NCBI GenBank assembly: GCA_963780535.1
Contig: CAWACS010000043.1
Span: 17,613-81,612, forward strand
DNA: 64,000 bases
Source of the DNA: an uncultured Verrucomicrobiae bacterium
GTDB lineage: Bacteria; Verrucomicrobiota; Verrucomicrobiia; Limisphaerales; UBA11358
Direction: 5' to 3'
The notes under the pieces were generated by a model. The model was not told the origin of the DNA and ran no database searches. It was given only the letters and a program-made list of their open reading frames with translations. Below, piece by piece: positions 5,279-56,661 of the stretch (position 1 is the stretch's first letter; every line of letters starts with the position of its first letter). The position numbers and the translations under genes were made by a program.

Positions 5279-5305
5279 AGGTTTTAGAGCGGTTTCATCT
5301 TTAAT

Positions 5306-5358
5306 GTAGCGCGGACATTCTTGTCTGCGGGTCTGCGGGACTGGAAAGCCTGCGCTAC
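5306..5358. repeat. short element with GTAGCGC terminal inverted repeats
   Basis: GTAGCGCGGACATTCTTGTCTGCGG...CCTGCGCTAC. The termini are reverse complements. It lies at the left edge of the AT-richer island. Confidence 0.45.
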
Positions 5359-5582
5359 GTTATCATCGGAACCGCTATAGTTTTGAGCCTCTTGCGTATT
5401 TTTGTGGCTATGGTTTTAGTTAATTTTTTCAACGCGGATACCGGAGAGGGAAAGAATCCGCGAAAATTCATGGAATTCGTGTCGGATTTCAAGTTGCAAA
5501 GAATTGTCAAAGTAAGTGTTGACATCATGCCAGTATTTGCTGTGATGGTTGGCGCAGGACATGAGACCATTCGGCACATGTA

Positions 5583-5927
5583 ATGCCGCTTGCTCAGGGC
5601 AAGTCAACCGCGCAACCGCGCAATAGTGCAGGGGAATCGTTTACCCGATCAAAATCTGGTTTGGCGCGCTTTGGCATGGATCGGGCGCATAGCTTTGCGC
5701 ACACCGGAATTGACCACCAAATCCAACCCTGCATCGAAATGAATGGTGGAACAATTAAAACTGGGGACATGGGCCCACGTGGCCAACTGGTTTTACCGTG
5801 GGGAAAAAGTAAATTTGTGTCAATACTTGGGACTGAACCCTTTACTGGCGATTGGCTGCGCTGGGTGAGCACGCGCGGCGGCAAAGGCCCGTGGAACGAG
5901 CCGGTCAGCGCTACGATTGCAGGATGA
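5583..5927 (+). CDS. possible gene remnant with FN3-like C-terminal strand
   Basis: The tail ...DWLRWVSTRGGKGPWNEPVSATIAG resembles the last strands of fibronectin-III-like domains. Its stop overlaps the next ATG (ATGA at 5924-5927). The N-terminal part looks non-coding. Weak call. Confidence 0.25.
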   Translation: MPLAQGKSTAQPRNSAGESFTRSKSGLARFGMDRAHSFAHTGIDHQIQPCIEMNGGTIKTGDMGPRGQLVLPWGKSKFVSILGTEPFTGDWLRWVSTRGGKGPWNEPVSATIAG

Positions 5928-7078
5928 AAGCGAAATGCAACATCCACAAGATGGCTTTAGTTGTCTTGGTGTTAGTTGTTTTAGTAGCGCAACCTTGGCT
6001 TGCTGACGCCGGGCAAGTAATTGATGTTCAGGGGCACTATGTTAAGACGCTCTATAGATACGGGAAACCAACAAGTGAATCTTTGCGTGTAACTTTTTTC
6101 ATTACCCTTTCGACAAACGCCTGTGGGATATGGGCGACGAACATGGACGATGCCTCTGTATGGGAAACTGTTGTTTACGATGGCACCAATACATATTTGC
6201 TAACTCCGATTGCCGGCCATTCCCCCCAAGGGGCGAGCGGAGCCACATTGTGTGGACTTGTAGATCCCGGACGTCAGTACTATACGATGGGCATAAGTTT
6301 TTTGGATACATATATTCCGTGGATAACATATTGCTTACGACCGTCTGACGTAACTCCCCACATGCATACACCCGGCGTGAACTGGAGAAGTGATGTAAAT
6401 ACTTATGGCTGGCGTTGGAAAGAGGTTGTGATTTCTTCCGACGGAAGGTTTTTGCAAGGATTTGTAATTGTCCGGGATTCATCGCTTGATTTGAACGGCA
6501 AGAGCGAACTTCTCCGGACCAATCTTGAGTATCCGCGAACAATTGATGATTTTCAAAATCAGAATCAATATCTAGCTTATCGTAAAAGCATTCCCGATGG
6601 TTGGGTTGGAAGAACATATATATGCGAGCAGTGGTATGAGACAAATGGCTATACTATTCCCTTGAGCGCCGAATTTAAACATTATGCTTTTAGCGGCGGC
6701 AAAACGCTTCTTACTGACAGTATAATCATACAGGCCGATACGATAAGTGTTTCCGAAGAAGCCACAAACTCGGCTCCGCCGCTAGCAGAGAAAACTTATG
6801 TCAGGGATTACCGCTACACCCGCCGGAACGAAAGTCGGATGTTCCCCTATGCCGAATATGTCGGATCGGGATCATGGAAACCTGATAACGACCCAGAGTT
6901 ATTAGCACAAGCAAATCGTTATATGAAATATGGGCCTACATTTGGTGATTTTGGGGTAGTGTCGAAGTTTTTCAGTCCTCAAGGAGGTCGCTTAATAGTG
7001 ATTTGGCTGTCATTGTTGCTCGTCAACGTAACAGTGATTGTCATATTAGTCCGTAACAAACTAAAAAAACACAAATAA
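5924..7078 (+). CDS. hypothetical exported, C-terminally membrane-anchored protein
   Basis: Signal peptide (MALVVLVLVVLVAQPWLADA). C-terminal TM helix plus basic tail (LIVIWLSLLLVNVTVIVILVRNKLKKHK). AT-richer than the flanks. No family recognised. Confidence 0.6.
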   Translation: MKAKCNIHKMALVVLVLVVLVAQPWLADAGQVIDVQGHYVKTLYRYGKPTSESLRVTFFITLSTNACGIWATNMDDASVWETVVYDGTNTYLLTPIAGHSPQGASGATLCGLVDPGRQYYTMGISFLDTYIPWITYCLRPSDVTPHMHTPGVNWRSDVNTYGWRWKEVVISSDGRFLQGFVIVRDSSLDLNGKSELLRTNLEYPRTIDDFQNQNQYLAYRKSIPDGWVGRTYICEQWYETNGYTIPLSAEFKHYAFSGGKTLLTDSIIIQADTISVSEEATNSAPPLAEKTYVRDYRYTRRNESRMFPYAEYVGSGSWKPDNDPELLAQANRYMKYGPTFGDFGVVSKFFSPQGGRLIVIWLSLLLVNVTVIVILVRNKLKKHK

Positions 7079-7082
7079 CAAC

Positions 7083-7328
7083 ATGAAAAATAAACTAAAA
7101 ATGACAATCGGTTTGCTTGCATTGTTGGGGATTGGAATAATCCCTGTGTCCATATTGGCTGCGGAAGATGCGGCAGCCTGCGCGTCGGAGACGCCTCCAT
7201 GTGATGGAGGAGAATGCCTGGCAAGTTATCCTGCAGGAGGCAATCAGCGTGGCCAATGTATTCAACAGGACAACCCTAGGTTTGACGGGGATCCGAAATG
7301 GTGCTTTTGTATTCCCGCCGGCAATTAG
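7083..7328 (+). CDS. small secreted cysteine-rich protein (6 Cys in a mature part of about 54 aa)
   Basis: Starts 4 nt after the previous stop. Signal peptide MKNKLKMTIGLLALLGIGIIPVSILA. Mature Cys pattern is C-x6-C-x4-C-x14-C-x14-C-x-C. Confidence 0.6.
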   Translation: MKNKLKMTIGLLALLGIGIIPVSILAAEDAAACASETPPCDGGECLASYPAGGNQRGQCIQQDNPRFDGDPKWCFCIPAGN

Positions 7329-7331
7329 GCC

Positions 7332-7853
7332 TTGTTAACCAAGCCACCATGCTTGATAAATCCATTGAAGCGACAAAGCAAAAAACAGAGCCAAGATCGT
7401 GTATCCGGCTCTGTTATCCTTGTTATAAGCCGAACACTTTTTATAAAATCAGCGGGAGTGTTGTTAACATTGACAGCGTTGGCAAAGCTGTATACAGCAT
7501 ATGCGGGATTGCGAATAATTGATTTGCACGATCCAATTCTGGGGTTCCGATTTCGCCACGAGTTGTTAGCCATCGGCATATTGGAGTTAACAATCGCTTG
7601 CGTGTGTTTGCTTACAAACCGCATCGGCTTGCAGTTGGGGCTTATTGCATGGCTGGGAACATGCTTCGCGGTGTATCGGTTAGGTCTATGGTGGATCGGC
7701 GGTGTTCAAGCTTGTCCTTGTCTCGGCAATTTTCCTGATGATCTTCATCTTTCAAAGGCAATCACCAATGCTATAACGTCGTGGATTATAATCTATTTAT
7801 TGATAGGGAGTTACAGCGGGCTGCTTAATATATGTTTACGAAAATCGGAGTAG
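7332..7853 (+). CDS. MauE/DoxX-like four-helix membrane protein
   Basis: Starts 3 nt after the previous stop (TTG start in the track). Four hydrophobic helices. CPCLG motif after helix 3, resembling the CGCFG-type motif of the MauE family. Confidence 0.5.
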
Positions 7854-10186
7854 TTTTCAGAGCAACAGTGCTGCTCGCAGTGCTTGTTTGCTGCCTATTC
7901 CAGTATGCATTGCGGTATCGCAGTCCTTTGAATAGGGATATTGCCACATTTGAACTGGTTTTTCTGCCTCAAGCCCAGTGGATGATTTTCGTGCTGGCTT
8001 GTGTTTGGTGCATTGGTCTGATCGCTTTGACGTATCAGTGGAACAATTTGTGGTTGATTGGACTTCTGTTGATTGTAGTCTTCGCCTATGCATCAAATTA
8101 CAAAATAGCTGCCTCGGATCCCAGCGCCTTAATTCTGTTGGTTGCTGTGGCTGCTGGCAAAGGAATCCTTTATTTTCGACAACAGAGACTCACACTTTCC
8201 TGTCTGATTGCGCTCTTGGTGGTGGCTTCCTGTTGGCACATTGAAAAGATTGTTGGCCATTATGTCGGGCCGCGCTGGATGGGGCTTTGGGATAATCCCA
8301 ATGACTACGGGTTGTTGATGGCCGTGGGCTTGATTCTAGCCGTTGGATTGTTGGCCGCGAAGAGGCACAAAAGGCACATAGAAACAGCAAATCAGAAAGC
8401 GGAAGGCGGAAACCAGGAAATAACAATCATAAAAAGGTACAAAGAGCACAAAGAAAATTCAAATTCTTTATTCCGTTCCTTTTTGCGTTCTCTGCGCTTT
8501 TTTGCGGCCAAAATAATTTCTGTTCTTCTTTTTATCGCGGCCTTTATGATGGCAACAGGATTGATCTTCAGTTACAGCCGTGGCGCATGGGTGGGAACGG
8601 CCATTGGGTTGCTGTATCTGGCAATGACTTACGGAAAGTTCAAGTGGCGGTGGGTGATACCGGGAATTTTCGTCGTGGCGGCGGTGGTATGGTTTTTCTG
8701 GAATGCCACGCCGGACAATGCGCCGTGGTATGTGAAGCGGCTGGATTTAGGCAGGGCATCGGCGCAACACCGGGTTGCGGCTTGGAAAGCGGGCTTTCAA
8801 ATGATGCGGGATCATCCTTTTGGCGTGGGTTGGAACGAGGTCGTTGATCTTTATCAGAAAAATTATTTGCCGCCGGAAGATGGCGCGGCGGCCATTACCA
8901 CGAATGATTATTTGATGCTGGGGACGCAATTGGGCTTGCCAGGGTTGATTTGTTTTGTGGCCTACGCTGCGCTCTGCTTTGTAGATAGGAGATGGAAGTT
9001 GGGAGTTGGCAAAGAAAAGCCTCACCTCACCCCGGCCCTCTCCCCATTTGGCCCCGCTGCCCCCGCCAAACGCGGAGAGGGAGAATTGTCGGTCGTCGCG
9101 ACGCAAACCATTTCACTTGGCACTCGTCACCTGTCACCCGCTTTCGCGTCACTTGCCACCCGTCACCTGTCACTCCAAGCCGCCTGCCGTTCGGCGGCGC
9201 TGGCCATGCTGGTGGCGTTTTGGTTTGACGGCGGGTTGTTCAAGCTGGCCACGGCAGCGGTGTTCTGGATTCTGTTGGAATTGGGAGCAGAGACAAGACG
9301 GAAGACAGAGGTCAGGGACCAGAAGACAGAGATCGAAAATCAGAAGTCAGAAGTCAGAAACCCGACCTCTGACCTCCGACCTCTGACTTCCGGCTTTACG
9401 CTCATTGAATTGCTGGTCGTTATCGCCATCATCGCAATTCTGGCCGCGCTATTGCTGCCCGCTCTTTCTGTCGCTAAACGAAGGGCTTCAGATATTCAGT
9501 GCATAAATAATCTCGGCCAAATGGCGATAGCAGGCACGCTATATTCCCATGATCACGATAAAACCGTCGCTTATACGGACGACTTGGGTATACCAAGGGC
9601 TGGCGACATCTGGTTGGCCCTTTTAAGCGAGTATTACTCTAATGTGAATGCCATTCGCCTCTGCCCGTTCGCATCGCAAGTCGCTACAAACACAGTTTGG
9701 TACGCAAAAGACATGAATAGCGCATGGCTTTTCAGATCCGTGGTGGATCCGAATAAGACTTATTCGGGGAGCTACGCGATGAATGGCTGGCTTTACACAG
9801 GTTTGCCGGACCCCAACGGCTACTTTTTCGAAAAATATTCCGCTGTAAAAAATACATCCATGACTCCGTTTTTCTGCGATTCCATCTGGGCAGATGTCTG
9901 GCCCGATGAAGTATCCGGCCCGGCGATTGATTTGACGAGGGGCGCGCTCACACCGGATATTGGACGCATAACCATTGCTCGACACGGCATATCTCCCGGG
10001 AATGTCCCCAGAAACATGACGGGCACCACGCCACTTCCGGGGTTCATCAATCTCTCCTTTATGGATGGACACGCGGAACGGGCATCCTTGGAGAGTCTGT
10101 GGGGGTTTTTGTGGCATCTAAAGTATGCGCCGCCAAAAATCCGCCCCCCGGCGATCGGTCAACCTCCACCGTGGCCGCCTAAATGA
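7832..10186 (+). CDS. single 784-aa ORF joining an O-antigen-ligase/Wzy_C-type polytopic protein to a prepilin-type protein
   Basis: N-terminal about 490 aa are multi-TM with Wzy_C-type loop motifs ([39 protein letters not shown]). There is no stop codon before the pilin-like module. The junction and one loop consist of repeat elements. Confidence 0.6.
9036..9081. repeat. CCCTCTCCCC...GGAGAGGG palindromic element inside a CDS
   Basis: Arms at 9036-9045 and 9074-9081. Translated in frame as [16 protein letters not shown]. Same arm sequence as the elements at 30291-30389. Confidence 0.7.
9124..9176. repeat. 7-nt periodic array (GTCACCY-type) inside a CDS
   Basis: tcGTCACCTGTCACCCgctttcgcGTCACTTGCCACCCGTCACCTGTCACTcc, translated as [17 protein letters not shown]. 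Confidence 0.7.
9289..9391. repeat. inverted pair of 7-nt arrays, (CAGAAGT)n / (GACCTCT)n, at the ligase-pilin junction
   Basis: Left: ...atCAGAAGTCAGAAGTCAGAAA. Right: GACCTCTGACCTCCGACCTCTGACTTCC. The arms are imperfectly complementary. Translated as ...[21 protein letters not shown]. Confidence 0.75.
9392..10186 (+). other. prepilin-type N-terminal cleavage/methylation module with DUF1559/H-X9-DG-like C-terminus
   Basis: G|[24 protein letters not shown] class-III signal at 9392. C-terminal ...[11 protein letters not shown]. No in-frame ATG/GTG/TTG in the roughly 30 codons upstream, so no independent canonical start is visible. Confidence 0.6.
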
Positions 10187-10221
10187 CGTCATAAATTATA
10201 TTGGCGTATCACACAGAATTC

Positions 10222-11955
10222 ATGACCAGCCCATCCACAGAATTCACCAGGAAACGGTTCACCATTTGGATTGTTCTTGGCGCGATTTTGTTTGTCTTGG
10301 GTTGGAGGGCGTTGGTGATAGCCGCTCAATATTTCAACGAACCTGATGTTGTCCGGGAACTTTGTTCCATACCGCAATTCGAGCAGGACTTGATTCCCAA
10401 CAGTGCCAACACGCGCTTGGTATTTTGCCAGGACACGGAGGCTGGCGTTGGTATTTATTTTTGCGATACCGACGGTGGGAAACCGCAATTATTGTGCGAA
10501 CAGAAAGAAAAAGGGAATCATTACAGACGTTTCTCGATGTTAGGTTGGGCTCCGGATGACAGTCTATTCGCGTGTGCTTGGCCGGAGAACACACAAGATC
10601 AAGAGTTCATCCTGATTTTTGATGGTCTCACGGGCCAGCTTTTAAGCAAGCTTGAAGCTGACCAAAGCTTTGAACAGTTTACTTGGCTTTCCAGTGGATC
10701 TTTCGCTTATTCCGCAGGCGGCACCTCGGTCAGGGTTGTCATCAAGCAGGCGGATGGTAGTTGGGTTCATAAGCGATATTTTGAGAATGTTGCCACCAAT
10801 ATGGACAATTTCGTCGCTTTTTCTCCCGATTCAGTTGCCTGGCACGACGGCAACGCGATTTGGTTGTTCAATCTTGATTCGGGCTCCTCGGAAAAAGTCT
10901 GGGAAGCGACCAATCAGTTGGTGGAGTTTACCATCGCCAGGGATAGCGGCGGATTTTTGCTGAATTGCAGCGATGACCTTGGACAATATCTGTCGTGGTT
11001 TGACCTGCAGGACAAACGTACAGTTGATTTGGGGCGGATCAGCGACCAGCAGAATTACATCCGTAACGCCATCTGGAACGGTCATGGCAGCAGTTACGCC
11101 TACCTGACGAACGATTTGGCGGGAAGCGCCTTTTGTATCAAGACCGCAGAAATGACCACGCCGATCACAATTACATGGCGCGGGGGCGTTCACAATTTAA
11201 CCCTGAACGGCAATCAATTGTTTTTCACCGGCAATCCGGAAGATCAACCACCGGGTATTTGGGAATACGACATCCAATTCAAAACCTTCAAATGTATAGT
11301 TCCCAGCACAAGCGGCCCGCCTGGAAATAGGATCGGGAGTCCGCCGATGTGTCAAATGATGACCAACTCCCTGGGCGAACAACGGTTCTACCATCTTTGG
11401 GGGCCACCTCATGTTTCACCCAATAAGAAATATCCGGTCTTGCTAGCTCAGGAGCTTAACTACTGGTTCCCCTGTTTTCAGGTCGCCGCCGACAGCGGTT
11501 ACTATGTGGCAGTGGTGGATCGCCCATTCTTCAACACTTGGGATGGGAATCCAGAGCATTCGTGGGTTGAAGACGTTAGTGGTCTCTATGAGGTTGCGAT
11601 GCGCAATCCAAACGTTGATACCAACCGTGTTTATCTTTACGCCTGCAGCAGAGAGACATCATTTTTGAGCCAATTGATGAATGAGAGGCCATCACTGGCG
11701 AAGGGCGCAATTCTATTCAGTCCGACCGGTCTTCCCGATGCTTCTGCCTTGCAAAACAAGCGGATTCTGATCGTGGATGGAAAGCTCGATGGCGACGCCT
11801 CACAGCGATTTTCTGAATTTCAGGACCGTGCAGCCCAGGAAGGGAATAACGTTACACTCCTTCTGCAAGATAATGCGGGTCATATTTCCGCCTCCGGCAC
11901 AACTCTATGTAATCAGGCGAGGCTGTTTGCCAAATTTATCTCGGATTACAAATGA
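10222..11955 (+). CDS. membrane-anchored beta-propeller plus alpha/beta-hydrolase (S9-peptidase-like) protein
   Basis: N-terminal TM (FTIWIVLGAILFVLGWRALVIAA). TolB/WD-like repeats (WAPDDSLFACAW, FSPDSVAWHDGNAIWLFNLDSG). C-terminal hydrolase-like region (KYPVLLAQ..., YLYACSRE, DGKLDGD, NAGHI). A TTG at 10201 is an alternative start. Confidence 0.6.
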   Translation: MTSPSTEFTRKRFTIWIVLGAILFVLGWRALVIAAQYFNEPDVVRELCSIPQFEQDLIPNSANTRLVFCQDTEAGVGIYFCDTDGGKPQLLCEQKEKGNHYRRFSMLGWAPDDSLFACAWPENTQDQEFILIFDGLTGQLLSKLEADQSFEQFTWLSSGSFAYSAGGTSVRVVIKQADGSWVHKRYFENVATNMDNFVAFSPDSVAWHDGNAIWLFNLDSGSSEKVWEATNQLVEFTIARDSGGFLLNCSDDLGQYLSWFDLQDKRTVDLGRISDQQNYIRNAIWNGHGSSYAYLTNDLAGSAFCIKTAEMTTPITITWRGGVHNLTLNGNQLFFTGNPEDQPPGIWEYDIQFKTFKCIVPSTSGPPGNRIGSPPMCQMMTNSLGEQRFYHLWGPPHVSPNKKYPVLLAQELNYWFPCFQVAADSGYYVAVVDRPFFNTWDGNPEHSWVEDVSGLYEVAMRNPNVDTNRVYLYACSRETSFLSQLMNERPSLAKGAILFSPTGLPDASALQNKRILIVDGKLDGDASQRFSEFQDRAAQEGNNVTLLLQDNAGHISASGTTLCNQARLFAKFISDYK

Positions 11956-12057
11956 CCTTTGACACTGCCAACTTCAATTCAATCGTGACCGGTTTCTCTG
12001 GGGAAGGGTTGGAACGATGGATTGTAGTCGCTCGGACCGGCATTGGTCTGGAAAGAT

Positions 12058-18271: not shown

Positions 18272-21200
18272 TTGGCGCAAAACGCGACAGCGTCGGCGAC
18301 AGGCGATTTGTTCGCTGACATCGCACACTTTCCCGCCGTGCAGTCCCTCATACGGCGATTGGAGCATGGCGGAGTGTTGTCCGGTGCCGGCGTCTGCCAG
18401 GCGGCCCAGCCGTTTCTCGCGGTTCTGCTTCAGGACATTTTCCCGCGACGACCGCTTGTCATTGTCGCGTCGGACCTGAAAATCCAGGAAAGTTTCCAGC
18501 AGGACATTGAAACGTGGCTTTCCGTGGGTCGAAAGACGAGGAGTGAAAGTCGAGGGCAAAAGCCGCCCGGTGAGTCGGGTCCTCGACCCCCGGCCCTCGA
18601 CCCTCGACTGCTGTTTTATCCCGCCTGGGAATCACTGCCGCACGAGGGCAAACTGCCGCACGCCGACACCATCAGCGATCGCCTCCAAACCCTGGTGGCC
18701 TTGTCCGGCAACTTAAACCTTAAAACTCAAAACTCCACACTGCTGGTCACGAGTGTCACCGCCCTGCTCCAGCAAACCTTTCCGCCCGGCGAAATTGATC
18801 AGCGCACCCGCCGGCTGGCACGCGGGGACAAAATCGATCCGCTGGATCTGATCGAATGGCTGGAAGCGCAGGATTACGAACCGGAAGCCCAAGTGACCCA
18901 AAAGGGCGAGATCGCCCTGCGCGGCGGCATTCTGGATGTCTGGCCGCTGACCCGTCCCTGGCCGGCGCGGCTGGAGTTCTTCGGCGATGAATTGGAATCG
19001 CTCCGCCACTTCGACCCGCTCACGCAAATCTCGCGTGAGGAAATTTCACAGATCGCCATTCCACCGGGAGGCGAACTGGGAATATTGAAGTCCAAAATCC
19101 AAGGTCCGGAGTCCAGGGTCAGCGAATTCGCCACCCTTCTGGATTACCTGCCACCGAATACGATCTTTCTGCTCTGCGAACCGGAACAGTTGGCCGCCCG
19201 CGCGGAGGAATACGCGCAGCAAATTCCTCCGGACGATCCGTTTTTCATTTCATGGGTAGAGTTTCTGCGACGACTCACCACCAAAGCAATGGCGGTGGTG
19301 AAACTGGCCGAAACGGGCGATCAAGGTTCGCAATCCGACCCGGCGCCTGCCGAAAATCCAAAATCCGCAATCCACATTCCGCCATTCCAAAGCCTCGATA
19401 TTTACCGTCCCCTGGCCGGGCGTACGCTGGAATTGCCCATTGTCGAGGCTCAGCGCCGCGAATTTTTCAATCACCTCCATCATTGGCTGCGGCAGGGCTA
19501 CGCCGTTCATGTCTTCTGCAACAACGAGAGCGAACGGCAGCGGTTCGGTGAGATTTGGGAAGAATCGGGCCTTGGGTCTGGCGTCCCGGATCCAGGGAAA
19601 GACCCCGCCGGCGCACAACCCCAAGCTCCGGACCCCAGACCCCAGACGCAAATCGGCTCGCTCGCCCGCGGCTTCCTTTGCGACTACGCCAAACTGGTCG
19701 TCGTCACCGACGCGGAAATTTTCGGCCGTTACAAAATCCAGCGACCGCGCCGCCTCAAATCACCGCACGCGCTCGCCACCCGCTCCGCCCTGGACATCGA
19801 TTTCACCGCCTTGGAGGAAGGCGACCTCGTCGTGCACCTCCAATACGGCATTGGCCGTTACCTGGGCCTGAAAACCCTGCCGGCTTCGAGCCGTGTTCCC
19901 GTCTCCCATCTCCCATCTCCCATCACCGAAACAGAATGTTTGGTCATCGAATACGCCCCCGCGAATCCCGGCGATGAACGGCCGAAACTTTATGTGCCGG
20001 TGACCGAGGCGCATCTGGTCGGCAAATATGTCGGGGCCGGCAAGGCGCATCCGCCGTTGAACACGCTGGGAGGCACGCGCTGGCGCAAGGCGAAGGAACA
20101 GGCCGAACGCGCGGTGCGCGATGTCGCCGCCGAACTGCTGCAAATCCAGGCCGTGCGCGAATCCCAACCCGGCCACGCCTGCAAACCCGATGTCCCCTGG
20201 CAACGGGAGTTCGAAGGCGCCTTCATTTTTGAGGAAACACCCGATCAATGGCGCGCAATCCAGGAAACCAAGTCCGACATGGAAAGACCAAAGCCGATGG
20301 ACCGGCTGATCTGCGGCGACGTCGGCTTCGGCAAAACCGAGGTGGCCATCCGGGCGGCGTTCAAGGCCGTGATGGACGGCCGGCAGGTGGCCGTACTGGT
20401 GCCCACGACCGTGCTGGCGCAACAGCATTTCAACACCTTCCGGGAGCGGATGGCGGATTATCCGGTGCGCATCGAATTGCTCTCGCGTTTTCGTTCACGC
20501 CGCCAGCAACAGCGGGTGGTCAAGGACCTGGCTAACGGCGCCGTGGACATCGTCATCGGCACCCACCGGTTGATTCAAAACGACATTACCTTCAAGGATC
20601 TCGGCCTGGTCGTCATTGACGAGGAGCAACGGTTCGGCGTGTTGCACAAGGAAAAATTCAAGCGCCTGCGCACGCTGGTGGATGTGCTGACGCTCAGCGC
20701 CACGCCGATCCCCCGCACACTTTACCTGGCCCTCACCGGCGCGCGCGACATGAGCACCATCCAGACGCCGCCACACGACCGCCTGCCGGTCGAAACCATC
20801 GTCACCCAGTTCGACGAACGCGTCATCCGCGATGCCATCCAGCGTGAACTGAGCCGCGGCGGCCAGGTTTTCTTTCTGCACAACCGGGTGATGACGATTC
20901 AGCTGACGGCCGACCGGCTGAAACGGCTGCTGCCGCGCGCGCGCATCGTCGTTGGCCACGGCCAGATGGATGCGGACGAACTGGAAGAGGTCATGACCAA
21001 GTTCGTCAATGGCGAGGCGGACGTCCTGCTGTCCACCACCATCATCGAGAGCGGCTTGGATATTCCAAACGCGAACACCATCATCATCGATCGCGCCGAC
21101 CGGTTCGGCCTGAGCGATTTGTATCAATTACGCGGGCGCGTCGGGCGGTACAAGCATCAGGCCTACGCGTATCTGCTGTTGCCGCGCCACGTGAGCCTGC

Positions 21201-21844
21201 TCACTGATGTGCGCAAACGCATCAGCGCCATCCGGCAATATTCCACGCTCGGCAGCGGCTTCAAAATCGCGATGCGCGACCTCGAAATCCGCGGCGCGGG
21301 CAATCTGCTCGGCGCGGAACAGAGCGGCCATATCACCGCCGTCGGCTTCGAGTTGTACTGCCAGTTGCTCAAACAGAGCGTTTCGTCGCTCAAGGGTGAA
21401 AAAGTAAAACCCCGCGTCGAAGTCAGTGTAACATTGGATTTCCTGGACCAGTCAGTAGTTCGTCGTCAATCGTCCGCAGCTACCGACTGCGGACCATTGA
21501 CGGCCGGCCTGCCCCACTCCTACGTTACCGGACCGCAGCATCGCATTGAAATCTATCGCAAGCTCGCCCAGGCGACGGACCAGCCGGCCATCGAAGCCTT
21601 GCAAACGGAAGTGCGCGACCGTTTCGGCCCGCCGCCGTCGGCGGTCAAATTGCTGTTGCTCGTGGCTGGACTGAAAATTCTGGCCGGCGAAAAGGCGGTG
21701 ACGGTCATCGAAGTGAAGGACGACAAGTTGATGCTGACGCGCCACGGCGATTTCATCACGCTCGGCGGGAAATTCCCGCGGCTGACCAAAAGGGACGCCC
21801 AGGCGCGGTTGAAGGAAATCAAGCGGCTGTTGCTGGCGATTTAG
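18272..21844 (+). CDS. mfd: transcription-repair coupling factor
   Basis: Helicase motifs [39 protein letters not shown] and RGRVGR. The 1190-aa length includes several repeat-derived inserts. Confidence 0.9.
18536..18612. repeat. inverted 7-nt arrays (GTCGAGG / CCTCGAC) inside mfd
   Basis: gagtgaaaGTCGAGGGcaaaag...CCTCGACccccggcCCTCGACCCTCGACtgc, translated as [23 protein letters not shown]. Confidence 0.7.
19353..19388. repeat. 7-nt array (AAAATCC-type) inside mfd
   Basis: AAAATCC AAAATCC GCAATCC ACATTCC GCCATTCC, translated as [13 protein letters not shown]. Confidence 0.65.
19570..19649. repeat. inverted 7-nt arrays (GGGTCTG / GACCCCA) inside mfd
   Basis: Left arm GGGTCTGGCGTCCCGGA (19574). 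Right arm TCCGGACCCCAGACCCCAGACGC (19627). Roughly complementary. Confidence 0.65.
19895..19928. repeat. 7-nt array (TCTCCCA)x3 inside mfd
   Basis: ccgTCTCCCATCTCCCATCTCCCATCACC, translated as VSHLPSPIT. Confidence 0.75.
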
Positions 21845-23790: not shown

Positions 23791-25464
23791 TCAGCTGATT
23801 TGCAACCACACCGTCTTCAAATAGGCCGGTTCGGCGCGGCTGACGGGGAAATCCGGCGGCTGCGGAAAATAATGCTGCTGTAAAATTTCCCGTCGCGCGT
23901 GAAGGACGGCGGTTTCGACCTCGGCGAGAAACGCCTCCGGCGGCCAGTCGGTGGCATTGGTCGAGGCCAACAGGATTCCGCCCGGCTTTACCAGCGGCAG
24001 CGCCGCGGTCACAAGTTTTGCATAATCCTTCTCCACCCGGAACACACCGCTTTCCTTCGACTGCGAAAATGTCGGCGGATCGAGCAGCACGGTGTCGAAC
24101 CGGCGGCCCTTTTTCGCCAGCCGTCGCAGCCAGTCGAATGCATCGCCGTAAATGAACTCGTGCGCCGCTGGGTCCAGCCCGTTCACCGTGAAGTTGCGCC
24201 GGCCCCATTCGAGGTATTTCCTCGAGAGATCAAGGCTCGTCGTCCGGGCGCCCGCCCGCGCCGCACAGACGGAAAAACCGCAGGTGTAGGCGAATACGTT
24301 CAGAAGTTCGGAGTTCGGAGTTCGGAGTTCGGAGTTCGAAAAATCCGCGGCGATGTAACCGGTCAAAATTCGGCGGCGGTTGTCGCGCTGGTCCAAAAAC
24401 AAACCCATGGAATAACCTTCGTTGAAACTCAACTCAAAGCGGACGCCATTTTCCATGATCTCGAACCGCTCCGGCGCGGCCTCCCCCAGCACCCGTTGTG
24501 GCGACGCCTCCGCCGTCGTCGTGCGCCGAACCTGTTGCGACAGGATTTTGTGATACGCGCCGCGCGCGGCAAACGTTTTCAGCAGTCGCGCCAGCCCGTC
24601 GCGCTGGTCCACCCGCAACGGTTGCCCGGATTGCGAGAGCAGAAAATCGCCCAATCGCTCTACATACCATCCCGGCCAGCCGTCGCTCGCGCCGTGAATC
24701 GCGCGGAAGGCATTCGTCGCTTCCGGCTCGATCACCGCGGCCCGCAACGCGCAGGAGCCGACGTGAGGAGGCCCTGACTTTTCTGTTTTGTTTTTGAGAC
24801 TCGTCACCTCGTCTCCTGCAAAGTCAGCCGGCGCGCCAAATGTCACCGGCTTGCCGGTGGTCGGATGGGTGAAGAAAATTTCCGCCGCGTGCAGAAAGAC
24901 GCGCGACGACGTCGTGCCGCCATAGAGCGTGTCGCCGAGAACGGGAAATCCACTCTCCGCGGCGTGAACGCGGATCTGGTGCGTGCGTCCGGTAAGCGGC
25001 TCGGCCTCAATCACGTTGCAGCGGCGGTCACAGACCGCCGATACAGTAAAACGCGTTTCCGCGATTTCCGCACCCGTATGCGGCGGCCGGCTCACATACC
25101 TGTCACCGGCCCGAACCAGCGCGGTCTTGACCGTGAATTCCCCTTCTGGCACTTCGCGGTCGGTGAGCAGGAGATATTTCTTGCGGACACGCCGTTGCGT
25201 GAATTGTTCGGTCAGCGAACGGTTGGCGGCGGGGGTTTTGCCAAACACGAGCACGCCGCTCGTTTCCTTGTCCAGCCGGTGCAAAATCGCCAGCGCCGAC
25301 CAGCGCGGCTCGCGGTGGCGCAGCCAGTCGTAGATGCCCTCGCCCGCGTAGGGGCCGGGCGCATGCGTGTTCCAGCCGGCAGGCTTGTGGACCACCAGCA
25401 GATGCTCATCCTCAAAAATCACGCACGGCGCCATGCCCAGATGAAAGCATTTTCCCCCGCCCAA
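23791..25464 (-). CDS. fusion protein: RluA-family pseudouridine synthase (N-terminal) plus RlmI/RlmK-type SAM methyltransferase (C-terminal)
   Basis: N-terminus: FEDEHLLVVHKPAGWNTH and HRLDKETSGVLVFGKT (catalytic Asp motif). C-terminus: LLNVFAYTCGFSVCAARAGA (motif I) and VLLDPPTFSQSK. ATG 25434 is an alternative start. Confidence 0.75.
   Translation of the reverse strand: MGGGKCFHLGMAPCVIFEDEHLLVVHKPAGWNTHAPGPYAGEGIYDWLRHREPRWSALAILHRLDKETSGVLVFGKTPAANRSLTEQFTQRRVRKKYLLLTDREVPEGEFTVKTALVRAGDRYVSRPPHTGAEIAETRFTVSAVCDRRCNVIEAEPLTGRTHQIRVHAAESGFPVLGDTLYGGTTSSRVFLHAAEIFFTHPTTGKPVTFGAPADFAGDEVTSLKNKTEKSGPPHVGSCALRAAVIEPEATNAFRAIHGASDGWPGWYVERLGDFLLSQSGQPLRVDQRDGLARLLKTFAARGAYHKILSQQVRRTTTAEASPQRVLGEAAPERFEIMENGVRFELSFNEGYSMGLFLDQRDNRRRILTGYIAADFSNSELRTPNSELLNVFAYTCGFSVCAARAGARTTSLDLSRKYLEWGRRNFTVNGLDPAAHEFIYGDAFDWLRRLAKKGRRFDTVLLDPPTFSQSKESGVFRVEKDYAKLVTAALPLVKPGGILLASTNATDWPPEAFLAEVETAVLHARREILQQHYFPQPPDFPVSRAEPAYLKTVWLQIS
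24303..24340. repeat. 7-nt array (GGAGTTC)x5 inside the methyltransferase domain
   Basis: GAAGTTC GGAGTTC GGAGTTC GGAGTTC GGAGTTC. On the mRNA (minus) strand it reads (GAACTCC)n, translated as [11 protein letters not shown], directly before SAM motif I. Confidence 0.85.
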
Positions 25465-39548: not shown

Positions 39549-40286
39549 TCATGAAGTTAGCGTTTGTTGCCACCATACCGAAAGCATTGCATAATATGCC
39601 GCGCTTGCCCACTCTCCTTTGACGCGCCACTGCTCGAGGAACTCTCCTTCTAATTTCATGCCTGCCTTCTCAACCATTCGACGACCAGCGAGGTCTCGAA
39701 CATCTATTCTGACCCGAATGTCATGCAGAGCGATGCCGTTAAACCCAAAATCGAGGAGGCCACGAACCGCTTCAGTTCCATATCCTCGCCGTCGGTAACC
39801 AGGATGTATCATTATATGGAATGATCCCTGCCGATGCTCTTCTGGGTCATTTAAATCAAACGTCAGATTGCCTATAACCTTCACATTTTCTTTGAGTTCG
39901 ATTCCTAAAGCCAAGCGCCCATTAGGAGACGCGAGCCGAAGGGTCTTACATTTCTCCAACCAAATCCTGGTTTCTTCATCGTCCGGCGGGTAGTTAGTGA
40001 GATATTTATAGGAATCGTGATCTGTCACAAATTCAAGCCAGTCGGGCAGATCTTCCGTCCGCAATGGTCTTATGTTTAATCTCGGCGTTTTAATTGGAAG
40101 CGGAAGTTCTCTACCTTTTTCCGAGCCAGCCGGCGGGACTACTACTGTTTCGGAACAGTGCGGACATTCCTGCGCCGTGCCGAGGCGTGTTTCGGGAAAC
40201 GAAAGCGCCGCACCGCAATATGGACACCGAAAATCTATCAATTCATCGTCTGGCCGCTCAATGCTCATGACAATTCCAGCTTTCAA
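39549..40286 (-). CDS. GNAT (RimJ/RimL-type) N-acetyltransferase with N-terminal zinc ribbon
   Basis: CPYCGAALSFP...CPHCSETVVVP, then LRPLRTEDLPDWLEF...GYRRRGYGTEA (acetyl-CoA motif A). The ATG overlaps the argD stop (ATGA). Visibly lower GC than its neighbours. Confidence 0.75.
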   Translation of the reverse strand: MKAGIVMSIERPDDELIDFRCPYCGAALSFPETRLGTAQECPHCSETVVVPPAGSEKGRELPLPIKTPRLNIRPLRTEDLPDWLEFVTDHDSYKYLTNYPPDDEETRIWLEKCKTLRLASPNGRLALGIELKENVKVIGNLTFDLNDPEEHRQGSFHIMIHPGYRRRGYGTEAVRGLLDFGFNGIALHDIRVRIDVRDLAGRRMVEKAGMKLEGEFLEQWRVKGEWASAAYYAMLSVWWQQTLTS

Positions 40287-41593
40287 ACCAGCGATTTGAC
40301 GACTTCCTCGATTTTGCCGATGCCTTCACCGGCTTCCTGCGGCTTGAGGTTCAACGGCGGCAGCAGCCGCACGATTTGCGTTCCCGCTGGTATCGTCAGC
40401 ACGCCGGCCGAGTGCAGCCGGTTGACCAACTGGACCGCCGCCGTCTGGTCGCCCGAGGCGAACGCCGGAATTTTCTCCTTCTCCACCAGTTCCAGGCCGA
40501 GCATGAAACCAAATCCCCGCGCGCCCTTGAGCACCCGCGGATAACGGGCGACCAGCTGTTCCAGCCCGTGCTTCATCCAGTCGCCGAGTTGGCGCGCGTT
40601 TTCATCCAGCCGCTCGCGTTCGATGACCTCCAGGACTTTGAGCGCCACGGCGCAGGCCAGCGGCGTGCCGCCAAACGTCGTCGCGTGCGTGCCCGGCCCG
40701 AGCAGATCCGCATACGGCGCCCGCACCCAGAACGCGCCGATGGGAAATCCGCCGCCCAACGATTTGGCCATCGAAATGCCGTCGGGCCGGAAATCGGAGT
40801 CCGGAGTTCGAAGTCCGGAGTCCGGAGTTGCCGCTTCGAGAATCCTTTGGAAGCTCTGGAATCGGCCCGTCCGATAATGTCCGCACTGCACGCCATCAAG
40901 GAACAGCAGCAGCTTTTTCTCGTCGCACAACGCGCGCAGGCCCAGGAGGTATTCCGGCGTGGCAGGCGTGACGCCGCCCTCGCCCTGCACACCTTCAATG
41001 AGAATGGCGACCGTCGCGGGCGAAATCGCCGCGCGCACCGCCGCCAGATCGTTGAACGGCACGTGCCGGAAACCCGGCGTCATCGGTTCAAACCCCTTTT
41101 TAACCTTGTCCTGGCCGGTCGCCGCGATGGCGGCCAGCGTGCGCCCATGAAACGAGTTCGTCGCGGTCAGGATTTCAAACCGGCCCTCGGCGTGACCGAA
41201 TTTCCGGGCCAGTTTGAACAACCCTTCGTTGGCCTCCGCGCCGCTGTTGGCGAAGAAGCATTTGCCCGGGCCGATGCGTCGGACCAGTTCGGCGGCCAGC
41301 CGGCCCTGCGGCTCGGTGAAATACAGGTTCGAGACGTGAATCAGCTTGCGCGATTGCTCGACGAGCGCCTCGGTGATGGCCGGATGCGCGTGGCCGAGGC
41401 AGCACACAGCGATGCCGCCGCCCAGGTCGAGATAACGTTTGCCCGCAACGTCAAAAACGTAACTGCCCGCGCCGTGGCTGAGCACGAGGTCAAAACGCCC
41501 GTAGCTCGGCACGACGTTCTGGTTGAACAATTGCCGCACCGACTCGTGCTGGTTGTGCACGAGCGGCGGCGGTGAGGGAACGATTTCTTTCAT
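40283..41593 (-). CDS. argD: acetylornithine aminotransferase
   Basis: Class-III aminotransferase motifs (GGGIAVCCLGHAHP, LLFLDGVQCGHYRTG, AKSLGGGFPIGA). Start moved to ATG 41593, because the upstream ATG 41629 lies inside a repeat element. Confidence 0.85.
   Translation of the reverse strand: MKEIVPSPPPLVHNQHESVRQLFNQNVVPSYGRFDLVLSHGAGSYVFDVAGKRYLDLGGGIAVCCLGHAHPAITEALVEQSRKLIHVSNLYFTEPQGRLAAELVRRIGPGKCFFANSGAEANEGLFKLARKFGHAEGRFEILTATNSFHGRTLAAIAATGQDKVKKGFEPMTPGFRHVPFNDLAAVRAAISPATVAILIEGVQGEGGVTPATPEYLLGLRALCDEKKLLLFLDGVQCGHYRTGRFQSFQRILEAATPDSGLRTPDSDFRPDGISMAKSLGGGFPIGAFWVRAPYADLLGPGTHATTFGGTPLACAVALKVLEVIERERLDENARQLGDWMKHGLEQLVARYPRVLKGARGFGFMLGLELVEKEKIPAFASGDQTAAVQLVNRLHSAGVLTIPAGTQIVRLLPPLNLKPQEAGEGIGKIEEVVKSLV
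40807..40841. repeat. 7-nt array (GGAGTYC)x5 inside argD
   Basis: GGAGTCC GGAGTTC GAAGTCC GGAGTCC GGAGTTG. On the mRNA strand it is translated as TPDSGLRTPDSD. Confidence 0.8.
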
Positions 41594-41617
41594 TTCCGGT
41601 TCAGGCTTTGCATTTTT

Positions 41618-41690
41618 GTTGGAGTTCACGCTTCAGCGTGTTGGCTCGGAAAGAGCGCGACTCCCGACAAGCTAAAGCTTGAACGCCAAC
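41618..41690. repeat. TGGAGTTCA-type palindromic element at the argD 5' end
   Basis: GTTGGAGTTCACGCTTCAGCGTG...CAAGCTAAAGCTTGAACGCCAAC. Confidence 0.7.
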
Positions 41691-46588: not shown

Positions 46589-48649
46589 TTAATGTTTCTG
46601 ATATCGTTGCTGCATTTCGGGGGAGAGATCCCCAAAATTGACCTTCGTCATCGCCCACCCGCCGCCCGCCGGCGTATAACTGATGATGATTCCGTCCGAC
46701 ATCACCCGTTGCACCTCCGCATTTCTGTAGATGGATCCCGTAATGGTCACAAGTGCCGGAGCCTGTCTTGTCTGTGCCAAGGGACGGGGTCGCATTGGCG
46801 CCGCGTGAAGCACCAGGGAGGTCTTGGGCATTGCCAGCGCCACCGGCCGTAGCGTCTTGATTGGCGCCGCAACCACCGGTCGGGAGGTGACAACTGGAGC
46901 CACCGCAGCATGGGCGACCACCGGAGTGGGTTTCACGGAAATGACTTTGGCCACGGCGACAGGAGCTTCAGTTGCCGTTTCGGCGGCCACGGAAGCTTTC
47001 GGAGCCGAAGCAGGAGTAACCGGAGCCGCCGCTGGCGGTTGAGCCTGCGGATGATCCAAGTCGTACATTTTTTGCTCCAAAGCCGCCCGGGCAACCGCCA
47101 TTTCTGAAGCGCTGACAGCGGGAGCGGGAGTGGCACTGTCGATGGTGGCTGTGGAAACCGATGTTTCGTTTGTAGCCGCAGGGGCAGATGACGCTTCCGC
47201 AACCGGAGCCGTCGTCGGAGTGGTTACCGCTGGAGTTTCAACTGTCGGTGCCGTGGGTGCCGTGGCTTCAGCCGAAGTGGCCGCGGCAGGAGCAACGTCG
47301 GTTGTGGCTGCGGAAACCGGTTTAGTCTCAGTCGGAACGGCGGTCACGGTATTGGTGTCAACCGATGTTTCATTCGTAGCCGCAGGGGTAGATGACGCTT
47401 CGGCAACCGGAGTTGTCGTCGGAGCGGTTGCCACCGGAGTTTCCATTGTCGGTGCCGTCGGTGCCGTGGCTTCAGCCGAAGTGGCCGCGGCAGGAGCAAC
47501 GTCGGTTGTGGCTGCGGAAACCGGTTTGGTCTCAGTCGGAACGGCGTTCACGGTATTGGTGTCAACCGATGTTTCGTTCGTAGCCGCAGGGGTAGATGAC
47601 GCTTCGGCAACCGGAGTTGTCGTCGGAGCGGTTGCCACCGGAGTTTCCATTGTCGGTGCCGCCGATGCCGTGGCTTCCGTCGAAGCGGTCGCGGCTGGAG
47701 CAACGTCGGTTGCGGCGGTGGAAACCGGTTTGGTCTCAGTCGGAACGGCAGCTACGGAATTGGTGGCAAAAGACGTTTCGTTCGTGGCTGCGGGAGCAGA
47801 CGACGCTTCGGCAACCTGAGCCGTCGTCGGAGCGGTTGCCACCGGAGTTTCCATTGTCGGTGCCGCCGATGCCGTGGCTTCCGTCGAAGCGGTCGCGGCT
47901 GGAGCAACGTCGGTTGCGGCGGTGGAAACCGGTTTGGTCTCAGCCGGAACGGAGGTCACGGTATTGGTGGCAAAAGACGTTTCGTTCGTGGCCGCGAGAG
48001 CAGACGACGCTTCGGCAACCGGAGCTGTCGTCGGAGTGGTTGCTACCGGAGCTTCAATTGTCGGTGCCGCCGGCGCCGTGGCTTCCGTCGAAGCGGTCGC
48101 GGCTGGAGCAACGTCGGTTGTGGCTGTGGAAACCGGTTTGGTCTCAGCCGGAACGGCAGCTACGGAATTGGTGGCAACAGACGTTTCGTTCGTGGCCGCG
48201 AGAGCAGACGACGCTTCGGCAACCGGAGCCGTCGTCGGAGTGGTTGCCACTGGAGCTTCAATTGTCGGTGCCGCTGGCGCCGTGGCTTCCGTCGAAGCGG
48301 TCGCCGCAGGAGCAACGTCGGCGGCGGCGGTGGAAACCGGTTTGGTCTCAGCCGGAACGGCAGCTACGGAATTGGTGGCCTCAGACGTTTCGTTTGTAGC
48401 CGCAGGGGTGGATGACGCTTCCGCGACCGGAGCCGCCGCCGCGGTGATGTTGGTCGTGGAGGATGCGGATTGCGCCGCCGCCGTTAAATTTGTATCCGTC
48501 GACGGCTGGGCCTGCGGGTGGTCGAGCTCAAATATTTTTTGCTCGAAAGCCGCGCGGGCCGCGGCCTGGTCCGGCGTATCATCCGCACGGGCAGAAAGCA
48601 TGGTCGCCGCCACAACGACGGATAAGCCAACCTGGATTCGGGTTTTCAT
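46589..48649 (-). CDS. secreted Ala/Thr/Pro/Glu-rich tandem-repeat protein with SH3-like C-terminal domain
   Basis: Signal peptide MKTRIQVGLSVVVAATMLSA at ATG 48649. Six full copies and one partial copy of a 68-aa unit. C-terminus ...GSIYRNAEVQRVMSDGIIISYTPAGGGWAMTKVNFGDLSPEMQQRY. Confidence 0.75.
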   Translation of the reverse strand: MKTRIQVGLSVVVAATMLSARADDTPDQAAARAAFEQKIFELDHPQAQPSTDTNLTAAAQSASSTTNITAAAAPVAEASSTPAATNETSEATNSVAAVPAETKPVSTAAADVAPAATASTEATAPAAPTIEAPVATTPTTAPVAEASSALAATNETSVATNSVAAVPAETKPVSTATTDVAPAATASTEATAPAAPTIEAPVATTPTTAPVAEASSALAATNETSFATNTVTSVPAETKPVSTAATDVAPAATASTEATASAAPTMETPVATAPTTAQVAEASSAPAATNETSFATNSVAAVPTETKPVSTAATDVAPAATASTEATASAAPTMETPVATAPTTTPVAEASSTPAATNETSVDTNTVNAVPTETKPVSAATTDVAPAAATSAEATAPTAPTMETPVATAPTTTPVAEASSTPAATNETSVDTNTVTAVPTETKPVSAATTDVAPAAATSAEATAPTAPTVETPAVTTPTTAPVAEASSAPAATNETSVSTATIDSATPAPAVSASEMAVARAALEQKMYDLDHPQAQPPAAAPVTPASAPKASVAAETATEAPVAVAKVISVKPTPVVAHAAVAPVVTSRPVVAAPIKTLRPVALAMPKTSLVLHAAPMRPRPLAQTRQAPALVTITGSIYRNAEVQRVMSDGIIISYTPAGGGWAMTKVNFGDLSPEMQQRYQKH
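47156..48433. repeat. 204-nt tandem repeat, about 6.3 copies (coding)
   Basis: The period is seen directly: near-identical out-of-frame track ORFs start at 47392 and 47596 (204 nt apart). The protein unit is APVAEASSxxAATNETSxxTNxVxxVPxETKPVSxAxTDVAPAAxxSxEATAxxAPTxExPVATxPTT. Confidence 0.85.
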
Positions 48650-48865
48650 AAATTTTCCTGTCTTCACCGGCCCTTGCGAGCATCTCCGGGGCCAATCTGG
48701 TTGGTCGCCGGTGCAAAGCGCATTTTTCCTCCAGCGAACGGTTTCCGGGGATGTCCGGGGATGATAGGAAATTCCATCTTCATGGAAAATTCCCGTTTGA
48801 ATCACAATATTGGTGAATGTCCAAATATTTGACGGGCTGGTATAAGTCGTGAAGACTGGAGATTA

Positions 48866-52965: not shown

Positions 52966-52998
52966 GAGGTTTCCGCAAAAAAATTCAAACCCGCACCC

Positions 52999-53068: not shown

Positions 53069-53086
53069 AATTTTACAAAAGTCACC

Positions 53087-56638: not shown

Positions 56639-56661
56639 CCTTGTTCATCCGCGCCCTGCGG

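Follow-up and report, generated by a model that had tools for sequence, protein, structure and literature searches.

Heptanucleotide tandem arrays in frame in protein loops and linkers of a Limisphaerales-type bacterium: probable microsatellites evolving in concert

The DNA stretch analysed here, referred to as the window, comprises 64,000 nucleotides of an uncultured Verrucomicrobiae bacterium (positions 17,613 to 81,612 of contig CAWACS010000043.1, assembly GCA_963780535.1) and carries a series of tandem arrays with a period of seven nucleotides, among them a pair of opposed arrays at 9289-9391. This pair is probably one of many short heptanucleotide microsatellites of 3-6 copies each, many of which are accompanied by an inverted partner array. 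The arrays were found in frame in conserved genes, including that of the transcription-repair coupling factor Mfd, and the trait is confined to one clade of Limisphaerales-like Verrucomicrobiota. The genome itself is of the Limisphaerales/Pedosphaerales type with a GC content of about 60%, and the closest matches to its Mfd were peat and soil metagenome-assembled genomes with 84-86% identity.

Arrays were detected with Tandem Repeats Finder and a separate autocorrelation scan, with dinucleotide-preserving shuffles as the control, and the identity of the array-bearing open reading frames (ORFs) was checked with Pfam and by homologue retrieval. The two detection procedures recovered arrays at or near every position listed in a preliminary description of the window, and two additional arrays were found at 8988-9009 and approximately 19088-19121. 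In the autocorrelation scan, 10 period-7 arrays with a score of at least 10 were present in the window, compared with 0.15 in the shuffled sequences, which is an enrichment of about 60-fold. The other periods, 4-6 and 8-15, gave 0 to 4 arrays each, and the excess was specific to period 7. The observation in the preliminary description was therefore confirmed, in a stronger form than first given, and its interpretation was supported in part. The preliminary description had also proposed a single class with a shared architecture and many different units, which agrees with the 97 unit classes that remained among 215 arrays after collapsing rotation and strand; the median copy number was 4. All 10 strong window arrays lay within verified genes, as had been stated, and a related hexamer pair alone crossed a gene boundary. 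Within the proteins encoded by the window host genes, the arrays occupied loops or inter-domain linkers.

The pair at 9289-9391 belongs to a fusion gene with the following features:

7868-10186, plus strand: host gene, a fusion of an O-antigen-ligase domain (Wzy_C) and a prepilin-like domain (N_methyl), identified with Pfam and by its homologues.
8988-9009, plus strand: GGAGTTG array of 3.1 copies in the Wzy loop, encoding WKLGVGK (Tandem Repeats Finder).
9124-9173, plus strand: two direct GTCACCY arrays without an inverted partner, encoding TRHLSP...TRHLSL (sequence and translation).
9289-9359, plus strand: left arm of the pair, with degenerate CAGAGRT/CAGAAGA units followed by a perfect TCAGAAG array of 2.9 copies at 9340-9359 (sequence, Tandem Repeats Finder and scan).
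9364-9391, plus strand: right arm of the pair, GACCTCT GACCTCC GACCTCT GACTTCC, encoding TSDLRPLTS (sequence, Tandem Repeats Finder and translation).

Protein P0001 is the window's own product and is 100% identical over 772 amino acids, which places the start of the gene at the GTG codon at 7868. More than 30 homologues, with lengths of 700-850 amino acids, combine Wzy_C and N_methyl in a single protein, and homologues of the fusion have GVGRWKMG-type peptides at the position of the 8988-9009 array. Tandem Repeats Finder called a GTCACCT array at 9148-9173, and the GTCACCY unit is also present in Mfd orthologues, in the form of GTGACAG/GTCACCY inverted pairs. The two arms of the flagged pair are separated by ACCC between 9359 and 9364, and the right arm was called as 3.4 copies of GACCTCT at 9364-9387. 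Its peptide TSDLRPLTS directly precedes the prepilin motif G/FTLIELLVV, and the stretch 9289-9391 is a translated linker just 5' of this motif in a conserved fusion protein. The possibility that 9289-9391 and 55660-55760 were intergenic arrays kept open by accident was rejected because both are linkers of conserved fusion proteins. The variant second unit of the right arm, GACCTCC, does remove an in-frame TGA as claimed, since codon 9377-9379, which reads CGA, would become TGA with GACCTCT as this unit; the remaining TGAs, at 9370 and 9384, lie in other frames. Metagenome contigs were also searched with exact flanks for copy-number variants between strains at this locus, and no match was obtained.

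Three minor observations concern the same gene and its surroundings. A prepilin peptidase could in principle cleave the pilin-like part of the fusion from the ligase. A hairpin repeat that is not a heptamer array, CCCTCTCCCC...GGGGAGAGGG, lies in frame in the Wzy loop at 9030-9090, where it encodes LTPALSP..GEGE with arms at 9036-9052 and 9065-9081; the same family occurs in frame at site C (see below) of the Mfd proteins of L002, L010, L016, L017, L020, L022, L023, and L070. The surrounding block 5300-12000 has a GC content of 0.45-0.51, compared with about 0.60 elsewhere, holds the Wzy-pilin fusion together with several ORFs lacking a Pfam match, and may be a surface-polysaccharide island.

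The largest number of arrays was found in mfd:

18272-21844, plus strand: mfd, transcription-repair coupling factor, with six arrays (Pfam UvrB_inter, CarD_TRCF_RID, DEAD, Helicase_C and TRCF).
18530-18608, plus strand: site A, an inverted pair of degenerate GTCGARR units, a loop, and four copies of CCTCGAC at 18581-18608 (Tandem Repeats Finder and folding).
18710-18735, plus strand: site B, AACTCAA/CTTAAAC array encoding NLNLKTQNS (Tandem Repeats Finder and scan).
19088-19121, plus strand: site B2, degenerate AAGTCCA-type array (sequence).
19353-19391, plus strand: site C, AAAATCC array (Tandem Repeats Finder).
19570-19647, plus strand: site D, an inverted pair with a GGGTCTG-type left arm at 19570-19585 and 2.4 copies of GACCCCA as the right arm at 19629-19647, detected as an array at 19631-19647 (Tandem Repeats Finder and folding).
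19897-19924, plus strand: site E, four copies of TCTCCCA in a loop of the CarD/TRCF RID domain (Tandem Repeats Finder and scan).

The orthologue sample comprised 80 mfd loci (L001-L080). These loci contained 205 period-7 arrays, whereas no other non-harmonic period gave more than 13 (the harmonic period 14 gave 53), and 188 of the 205 fell inside mfd. The array density was 0.65 per kb in mfd and 0.043 per kb in the flanks, a 15-fold difference. Outside the hot spots, period 7 was still the commonest, with 17 arrays compared with at most 11, and 62 compared with at most 20, which is 2-4 times the others. All 191 Mfd arrays mapped to 7 discrete alignment sites, and none of them was in the DEAD/helicase ATPase motor. 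They are insertions relative to some Mfd orthologues, while distant orthologues have non-repetitive loops of similar length. The comparison of presence and absence among orthologues revealed discrete sites, some of them empty, in a clade-limited distribution. Site A is empty in L003, L012, L023, and L080, and the remaining orthologues carry other units there. At site B2, L017 and L010 have AAGTCCA/AAGTTCA arrays, and the inverted pairs at site D of the orthologues consist of AGTCCAC/GTGGACT, GAGTCGA/TCGACYC, AGTCAGT/ACTGACT or AAGTCCA/TTGGACT.

Two other elements were seen in mfd of the orthologues. A GC-rich element of about 30 nt, ..GGCGCGCCGAAGCGGAGCGAAGGCGG.., which encodes ARRSEAKAA-like peptides, is nested in heptamer arrays that resume on either side of it. 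Within mfd it occurs in L007, L019, L021 (two sites), L023, L025, L015, L073, L078, and L080, and a related copy lies in the window at about 2087-2125, near the start of a GH2 ORF. The hairpin element GTAGGACAGGCGTC..GACGCCTGTCCTAC, encoding VGQASRLS...RRDACPT, is found at site D of L006, L011, L012, L014, L017, and L019, and its sites are loop sites that hold heptamer pairs in other orthologues. The mfd hot spot may reflect a large number of permissive linkers alone, or some tie to Mfd's own role.

Arrays were also present in four other coding regions of the window and at one gene start:

24305-24338, minus strand: perfect AGTTCGG array of 4.9 copies (CGAACTC on the coding strand) in a loop of a fusion of pseudouridine synthase and S-adenosylmethionine-dependent methyltransferase, gene 23791-25464 (Tandem Repeats Finder and Pfam).
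40795-40828, minus strand: CGGAGTC/CGGAGTT array of 4.9 copies encoding TPDSGLRTPDSDF in the acetylornithine aminotransferase ArgD, gene 40283-41629 (Tandem Repeats Finder and Pfam).
48985-49016, plus strand: perfect TCCGAAC array of 4.6 copies between the YHS and heavy-metal-binding domains of a copper-type P-type ATPase, gene 48866-51250 (Tandem Repeats Finder and Pfam).
55660-55705, plus strand: AAGGCYA array of 6.7 copies encoding RPKAKGQRLKAEVKG, the left-hand portion of the linker in an MMPL/lipid-A-type acyltransferase fusion (Tandem Repeats Finder and Pfam).
55732-55760, plus strand: perfect ATCCATC array of 4.1 copies encoding SIIHHPSSI in the right part of the same linker (Tandem Repeats Finder).
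56664-56757, plus strand: hexamer inverted pair of 5.7 copies of CTTAAT at 56664-56697 and 6.8 copies of AAGATT at 56717-56757 (Tandem Repeats Finder and folding).

The ArgD array forms an insertion of 15 residues relative to the solved Thermotoga enzyme (PDB 2ord), and the alignment gap coincides with the array. As a second, independent locus, the loop of the methyltransferase was compared in 110 metagenome contigs, where it behaved like the Mfd sites and contained diverse perfect heptamer arrays, decayed arrays or non-repetitive sequence. Its length varied in steps of 3 nt only, and many different perfect arrays had equal length. The MMPL/lipid-A-type acyltransferase fusion is kept in more than 100 homologues. 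Its AAGGCYA unit is one substitution away from CCAAAGT (SPKSKVQ), the unit common among these homologues, and a C in place of T in the third unit avoids an in-frame TAA. The hexamer pair lies across the intergenic gap and over the LolA gene start, with MKIRSKIMIKRKI encoded by its right arm. The pair is present in L191 and L192, while L190 has the GTAGGACAGGCGTC..GACGCCTGTCCTAC element in its place.

The number of arrays per Mfd was 3-3.4 in relatives at least 80% identical to the window protein, and no arrays were found in relatives with at most 65% identity. Within an array, the units were 95% identical to their own consensus. Between orthologous sites, the mean unit distance (out of 7) was 1.23 at Mfd identities above 90%, 2.46 at 80-90%, and 2.81 at 70-80%, compared with 3.21 for unrelated sites. 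Since the units are nearly uniform within arrays and orthologous units diverge along with Mfd, the arrays are inherited vertically and evolve in concert. Stepwise series could be followed at single sites, such as AACTCCG to GACTCCG to GACCCCG to GACCCCA at site E of Mfd, CCAAAGT (SPKSKVQ) to CCAAAGG, which corresponds to RPKAKGQ of the window, and ATCCATC to AGCCATC, a change found in 3 of 4 units in L191. Copy number also changes between relatives. The ATCCATC array has four copies in the window and one copy in L190 (89% protein identity), whose linker is exactly 21 nt (three units) shorter and otherwise nearly identical; L191 has three copies of AGCCATC at this site. When linker lengths were compared with the nearest relative of a different length, a difference of 7 amino acids was the most frequent (25 of 119).

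The preliminary description had emphasized that the arrays stay open inside genes. This was true of the arrays in genes, but it is not a special property of their units, since 71% of local heptamers were stop-free on both strands in tandem, compared with 68% of the arrays, and stop-freeness as a distinguishing trait was rejected on these grounds. Stops occurred in 8% of the units on the coding strand and in 28% on the opposite strand, and this one-sided depletion follows from survival inside a functional gene. The coding strand of the arrays consisted of A 0.29, C 0.35, G 0.20, and T 0.16, and S, P, N, T, and Q were over-represented in the encoded peptides, whereas F, M, Y, I, and V were under-represented. 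This hydrophilic, A+C-rich bias is the expected filter for a sequence of which all three phases are translated within a surface loop. The claim of instance-specific units held in that 97 classes were found, but the choice of units was biased, with RGTY/RACY-type cores enriched 2- to 3-fold and units recurring at unlinked loci. A universal xRGTYxx core was rejected, since it was found in only 37% of the unit classes compared with 19% of the background. Most of the 97 classes had no G3 tract.

Inverted pairs were confirmed at 9289-9391, 18530-18608, 19570-19647, and 56664-56757, but not at 9124-9173 or 55660/55732. In the window and the 80 related loci, 24-34% of the arrays had an inverted partner, compared with 2-10% in a mirror-repeat control, and about two-thirds of the arrays had none. 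The arms of a pair remained complementary through the turnover of their units, with a complementarity of 0.77-0.82 for native arms and 0.48-0.58 when arms were swapped between orthologues, so that the proposed conservation of hairpin pairing was upheld.

These findings could be explained by a clade-specific process at the DNA level with a 7-nt register, which would homogenize the units of an array and both of its inverted arms faster than point mutation separates them. The candidate engines are slipped-strand mispairing among the units of an array and intra-strand template switching from one inverted arm to the other, and each array would drift as a block, that is, by concerted evolution. The outcome would then be filtered by purifying selection acting on the host protein. 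Net changes in length would have to be divisible by 3 nt, usually amounting to three units (21 nt), in-frame stops would be lost, and the coding strand would become A+C-rich and T-poor, giving flexible peptides rich in S, P, T, N, Q, K, and R. The open reading frame would in this case be a consequence of purifying selection and not a built-in property of the arrays. We consider this combination of 7-nt homogenization and a protein-level filter, with the arrays as heptanucleotide microsatellites, to be the probable explanation. The arrays are most likely neutral or selfish passengers and not functional elements, although their neutrality is something that we infer.

Several points weigh against this explanation. 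Mfd is a hot spot with a 15-fold higher array density than its flanks. The methyltransferase loops were homogenized without net length change in coding DNA, and since slippage by one unit passes through frameshifted intermediates, a conversion-like process must be assumed. A general property of polymerases leaves both the register of 7 and the restriction to a single clade unaccounted for. An AACTCCG-type unit occurs in three unlinked window genes, and identical units at different Mfd sites were more frequent within a genome than between genomes (4.9% and 1.4%, respectively), which may point to exchange among loci or to a favoured set of units. Finally, the lasting complementarity of the arms could reflect selection for a hairpin.

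The recurrence of units is also an argument for an unlikely alternative, in which the arrays are miniature mobile hairpin elements of the REP, MITE or RPE type, or were seeded by them, and are copied by an element-encoded or domesticated enzyme, with only in-frame insertions in permissive loops surviving. The architecture of an inverted pair with a loop is consistent with such elements, as are the empty site A in four Mfd orthologues, the repeated nesting of the GC-rich GGCGCGCCGAAGCGGAGCGAAGGCGG element in arrays, and the presence of the dispersed hairpin repeats CCCTCTCCCC..GGGGAGAGGG and GTAGGACAGGC..GCCTGTCCTAC in the same loops of other orthologues. Rickettsia palindromic elements, reportedly described by Ogata et al. 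in 2000, are said to be hairpin repeats that lie in frame in conserved protein genes, at surface positions that permit them, and that are tolerated as additional segments of the peptide; the window arrays resemble them in their in-frame insertion at permissive positions of conserved genes (the Mfd alignment and ArgD compared with 2ord). However, the Rickettsia elements have a dispersed consensus of about 100-150 nt and are not internally tandem, whereas the arrays have no common consensus and evolve in place. In contrast to REP/REPIN sequences, the arrays are coding and not extragenic and have no family consensus of 20-40 nt, only the 2- to 3-fold RGTY bias. The 97 unit classes share no common termini, terminal inverted repeats or target-site duplications, and single arrays contain the repeat alone. 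As for MITE hallmarks, neither clean boundaries nor target-site duplications were seen between empty and occupied orthologous sites, a comparison in which divergence limits the resolution. Pfam scans of window ORFs, in a window that is about 1% of a genome, revealed no transposase, reverse transcriptase or RAYT, the cognate IS200/IS605-type transposase of REP/REPIN. Loops are conserved per site and the unit distance tracks host phylogeny, so that the original statement that ordinary REP or MITE copying does not account for the arrays still stands.

A further alternative, which we regard as distinctly unlikely, is an active clade-specific process by which 7-nt arrays, together with their inverted counterparts, are written and kept homogeneous wherever DNA is unconstrained. 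Candidates for such a process are an unusual enzyme of replication or repair and a conversion system directed by repeats. If it exists, linkers of this lineage would evolve by heptamer 'crystallization', and dozens of housekeeping genes, mfd foremost, would carry latent reversible frameshift switches.

Functional nucleic-acid hairpins under selection, that is, structures of mRNA, antisense RNA or single-stranded DNA tuning translation pausing, mRNA decay, transcription or replication, are a quite improbable explanation. In addition to arm complementarity outlasting unit sequence change, strong stems were predicted. On the template strand, the fold of 9283-9395 had a predicted energy of -54.1 kcal/mol (z -6.6), and its coding-strand counterpart reached -39.3 kcal/mol (z -3.0); the hexamer pair at the LolA start had -43.2 kcal/mol (z -5.4), and the LolA-start hairpin is conserved in two relatives. 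Among the coding-strand mismatches of the arms, A.C exceeded G.T (70 compared with 23), a coding A.C being a template G.T wobble. However, about two-thirds of the arrays have no partner, the coding-strand folds of the pairs were weak (z -0.8 to -3.0), and transversion-type mismatches (70) were as numerous as the wobble type. The stronger fold of the template strand and the excess of A.C are explained by the A+C-rich composition that the encoded peptides impose on the coding strand. A template-strand hairpin or antisense-RNA function, which had been considered on account of the A.C/G.T asymmetry, was therefore downgraded, since an A+C-rich, T-poor coding strand predicts the same asymmetry. A search of Rfam 15 at gathering thresholds across the whole window gave no match. 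Quasipalindrome template switching, an established mutational mechanism, can yield co-variation of arms without selection.

It is very improbable that the arrays are contingency loci, in which the addition or removal of a single unit would change the frame and produce reversible off/on switching, that is, phase variation. A unit length that is not a multiple of 3 would suit this role, and phase variation of the HMW adhesins of Haemophilus influenzae is mediated by heptanucleotide repeats. The window arrays share with the hmw-type loci non-triplet tandem units with a slippage-prone copy number, whole-unit changes of copy number exist, and some hosts are related to the envelope (the Wzy-pilin fusion, the MMPL-acyltransferase fusion, and LolA). 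In contrast, contingency repeats are longer, lie in the promoter or 5' coding region of surface genes, and commonly have on/off alleles, whereas the arrays described here are short (median 4 copies), lie in internal loops and not at 5' ends, and are in frame in all orthologues examined. Their hosts are mostly housekeeping genes (mfd, argD, the rRNA-modification enzyme, and copA). Neither the Mfd ORFs checked nor the 110 methyltransferase loops contained a frameshift allele of plus or minus 7 nt; two of the loops were out of frame, by 1-2 nt. A frameshift in mfd of L066 was rejected as phase variation because the interruption does not fall in an array and indel errors are possible in this assembly. 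Rare switching within populations is possible.

Protein-level selection for flexible heptapeptide-repeat linkers, with the DNA periodicity as a by-product, is extremely improbable, since, for all that the arrays lie in linkers and loops with conserved length classes and encode S/P/T/N/Q-rich disorder-type peptides, the period is 7 nt and not 21, the units are 95% identical in DNA with no synonymous variation, the peptides differ freely among close relatives (for example, RPKAKGQ and SPQSTVH at 91% protein identity), and relatives without arrays have loops of comparable length that are not repetitive.

Among known repeat systems, the cyanobacterial STRR heptamers, reportedly described by Mazel in 1990, and the TAACTGA arrays of Beggiatoaceae share with the window type a heptamer abundance that is specific to a lineage. 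They differ in having few fixed units per genome and a mostly intergenic location, often just 5' of start codons, and TAACTGA read forward has stops. The TAACTGA arrays lie upstream of genes, and heptamer arrays, when translated, give a 7-residue peptide repeat (MacGregor, 2015; PMC4679880). Arrays of GGGAATC in Xanthomonas and GGGGAYT in Nostoc prefer about four units (Rehm et al., 2015; PMC4692102), and Xanthomonas genomes contain 70-75 convergent inverted heptamer pairs each (PMC4692102). As in the window type, inverted pairs are frequent, and length and sequence vary extensively among close relatives at the same loci (PMC4692102). Those repeats, however, consist of a single conserved G-rich unit that could form G-quadruplexes, show a non-coding bias, and are depleted in ORFs (PMC4692102), whereas the window type has 97 unit classes, has no requirement for G tracts, and is coding.

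The passages of PMC4679880 and PMC4692102 that summarize Mrazek (2007) describe heptanucleotide simple sequence repeats (SSRs) as the most abundant class of long SSRs in many bacteria and give an origin by slippage tied to the DNA polymerase footprint as the proposed explanation. As summarized there, these SSRs are typical of large, high-GC, free-living genomes, and they resemble the window arrays in having tandem 7-nt units (a few to tens of copies in the bacterial SSRs), a favoured period of 7, and a copy number and sequence that differ among relatives. By the same passages, the bacterial SSRs are mainly intergenic, non-triplet units being disfavoured in coding DNA, whereas the window arrays lie in frame, also in housekeeping genes. 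The predominance of intergenic arrays seen in Xanthomonas, Nostoc, and E. coli is thus absent here, since 10 of 10 strong window arrays were genic and 188 of the 205 arrays of the related loci were in mfd. Our literature search gave no account of heptamer arrays as a regular in-frame part of coding loops, nor of such arrays in Verrucomicrobia.

Non-triplet repeats are generally held to be purged from coding DNA, but here they are routine material of loops and linkers throughout a clade, long-lived in evolution, and changing in sequence in concert and in length in three-unit steps. The clade consequently offers a natural system for studying the origin of the 7-nt register of bacterial microsatellites, which has been a question since 2007, homogenization without frameshift of the host gene, the co-evolution of inverted arms, and the mutational input to linker evolution and cryptic gene inactivation. 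The odd low-complexity peptides encoded by the arrays can mislead gene calling, alignment, and domain annotation in metagenome assemblies of Verrucomicrobiota.

A few additional observations were made elsewhere in the window. The arrangement of an MMPL exporter-lipid-A-type acyltransferase fusion followed by a LolA-like gene (52886-57426) is kept in more than 100 relatives. The right arm of the hexamer pair supplies the lysine/arginine-rich n-region of the LolA signal peptide. The first LolA ATG (56719) is not conserved in L192, and the true start may therefore be the ATG 21 nt downstream, which is preceded by AGGAG. A search with a peptide of six NSELRTP repeats, meant to trace one array across protein families, matched only short ORFs of 41-74 amino acids. 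A minus-strand ORF of 738 amino acids (46589-48805) had no Pfam match; it includes a tandem repeat with a unit of 204 nt, 6.3 copies, and 91% identity at 47151-48435. A gene of the PD-(D/E)XK nuclease family at 51282-52319 had a third-position GC content of 0.33, compared with about 0.75 in its neighbours, which suggests a recent acquisition.

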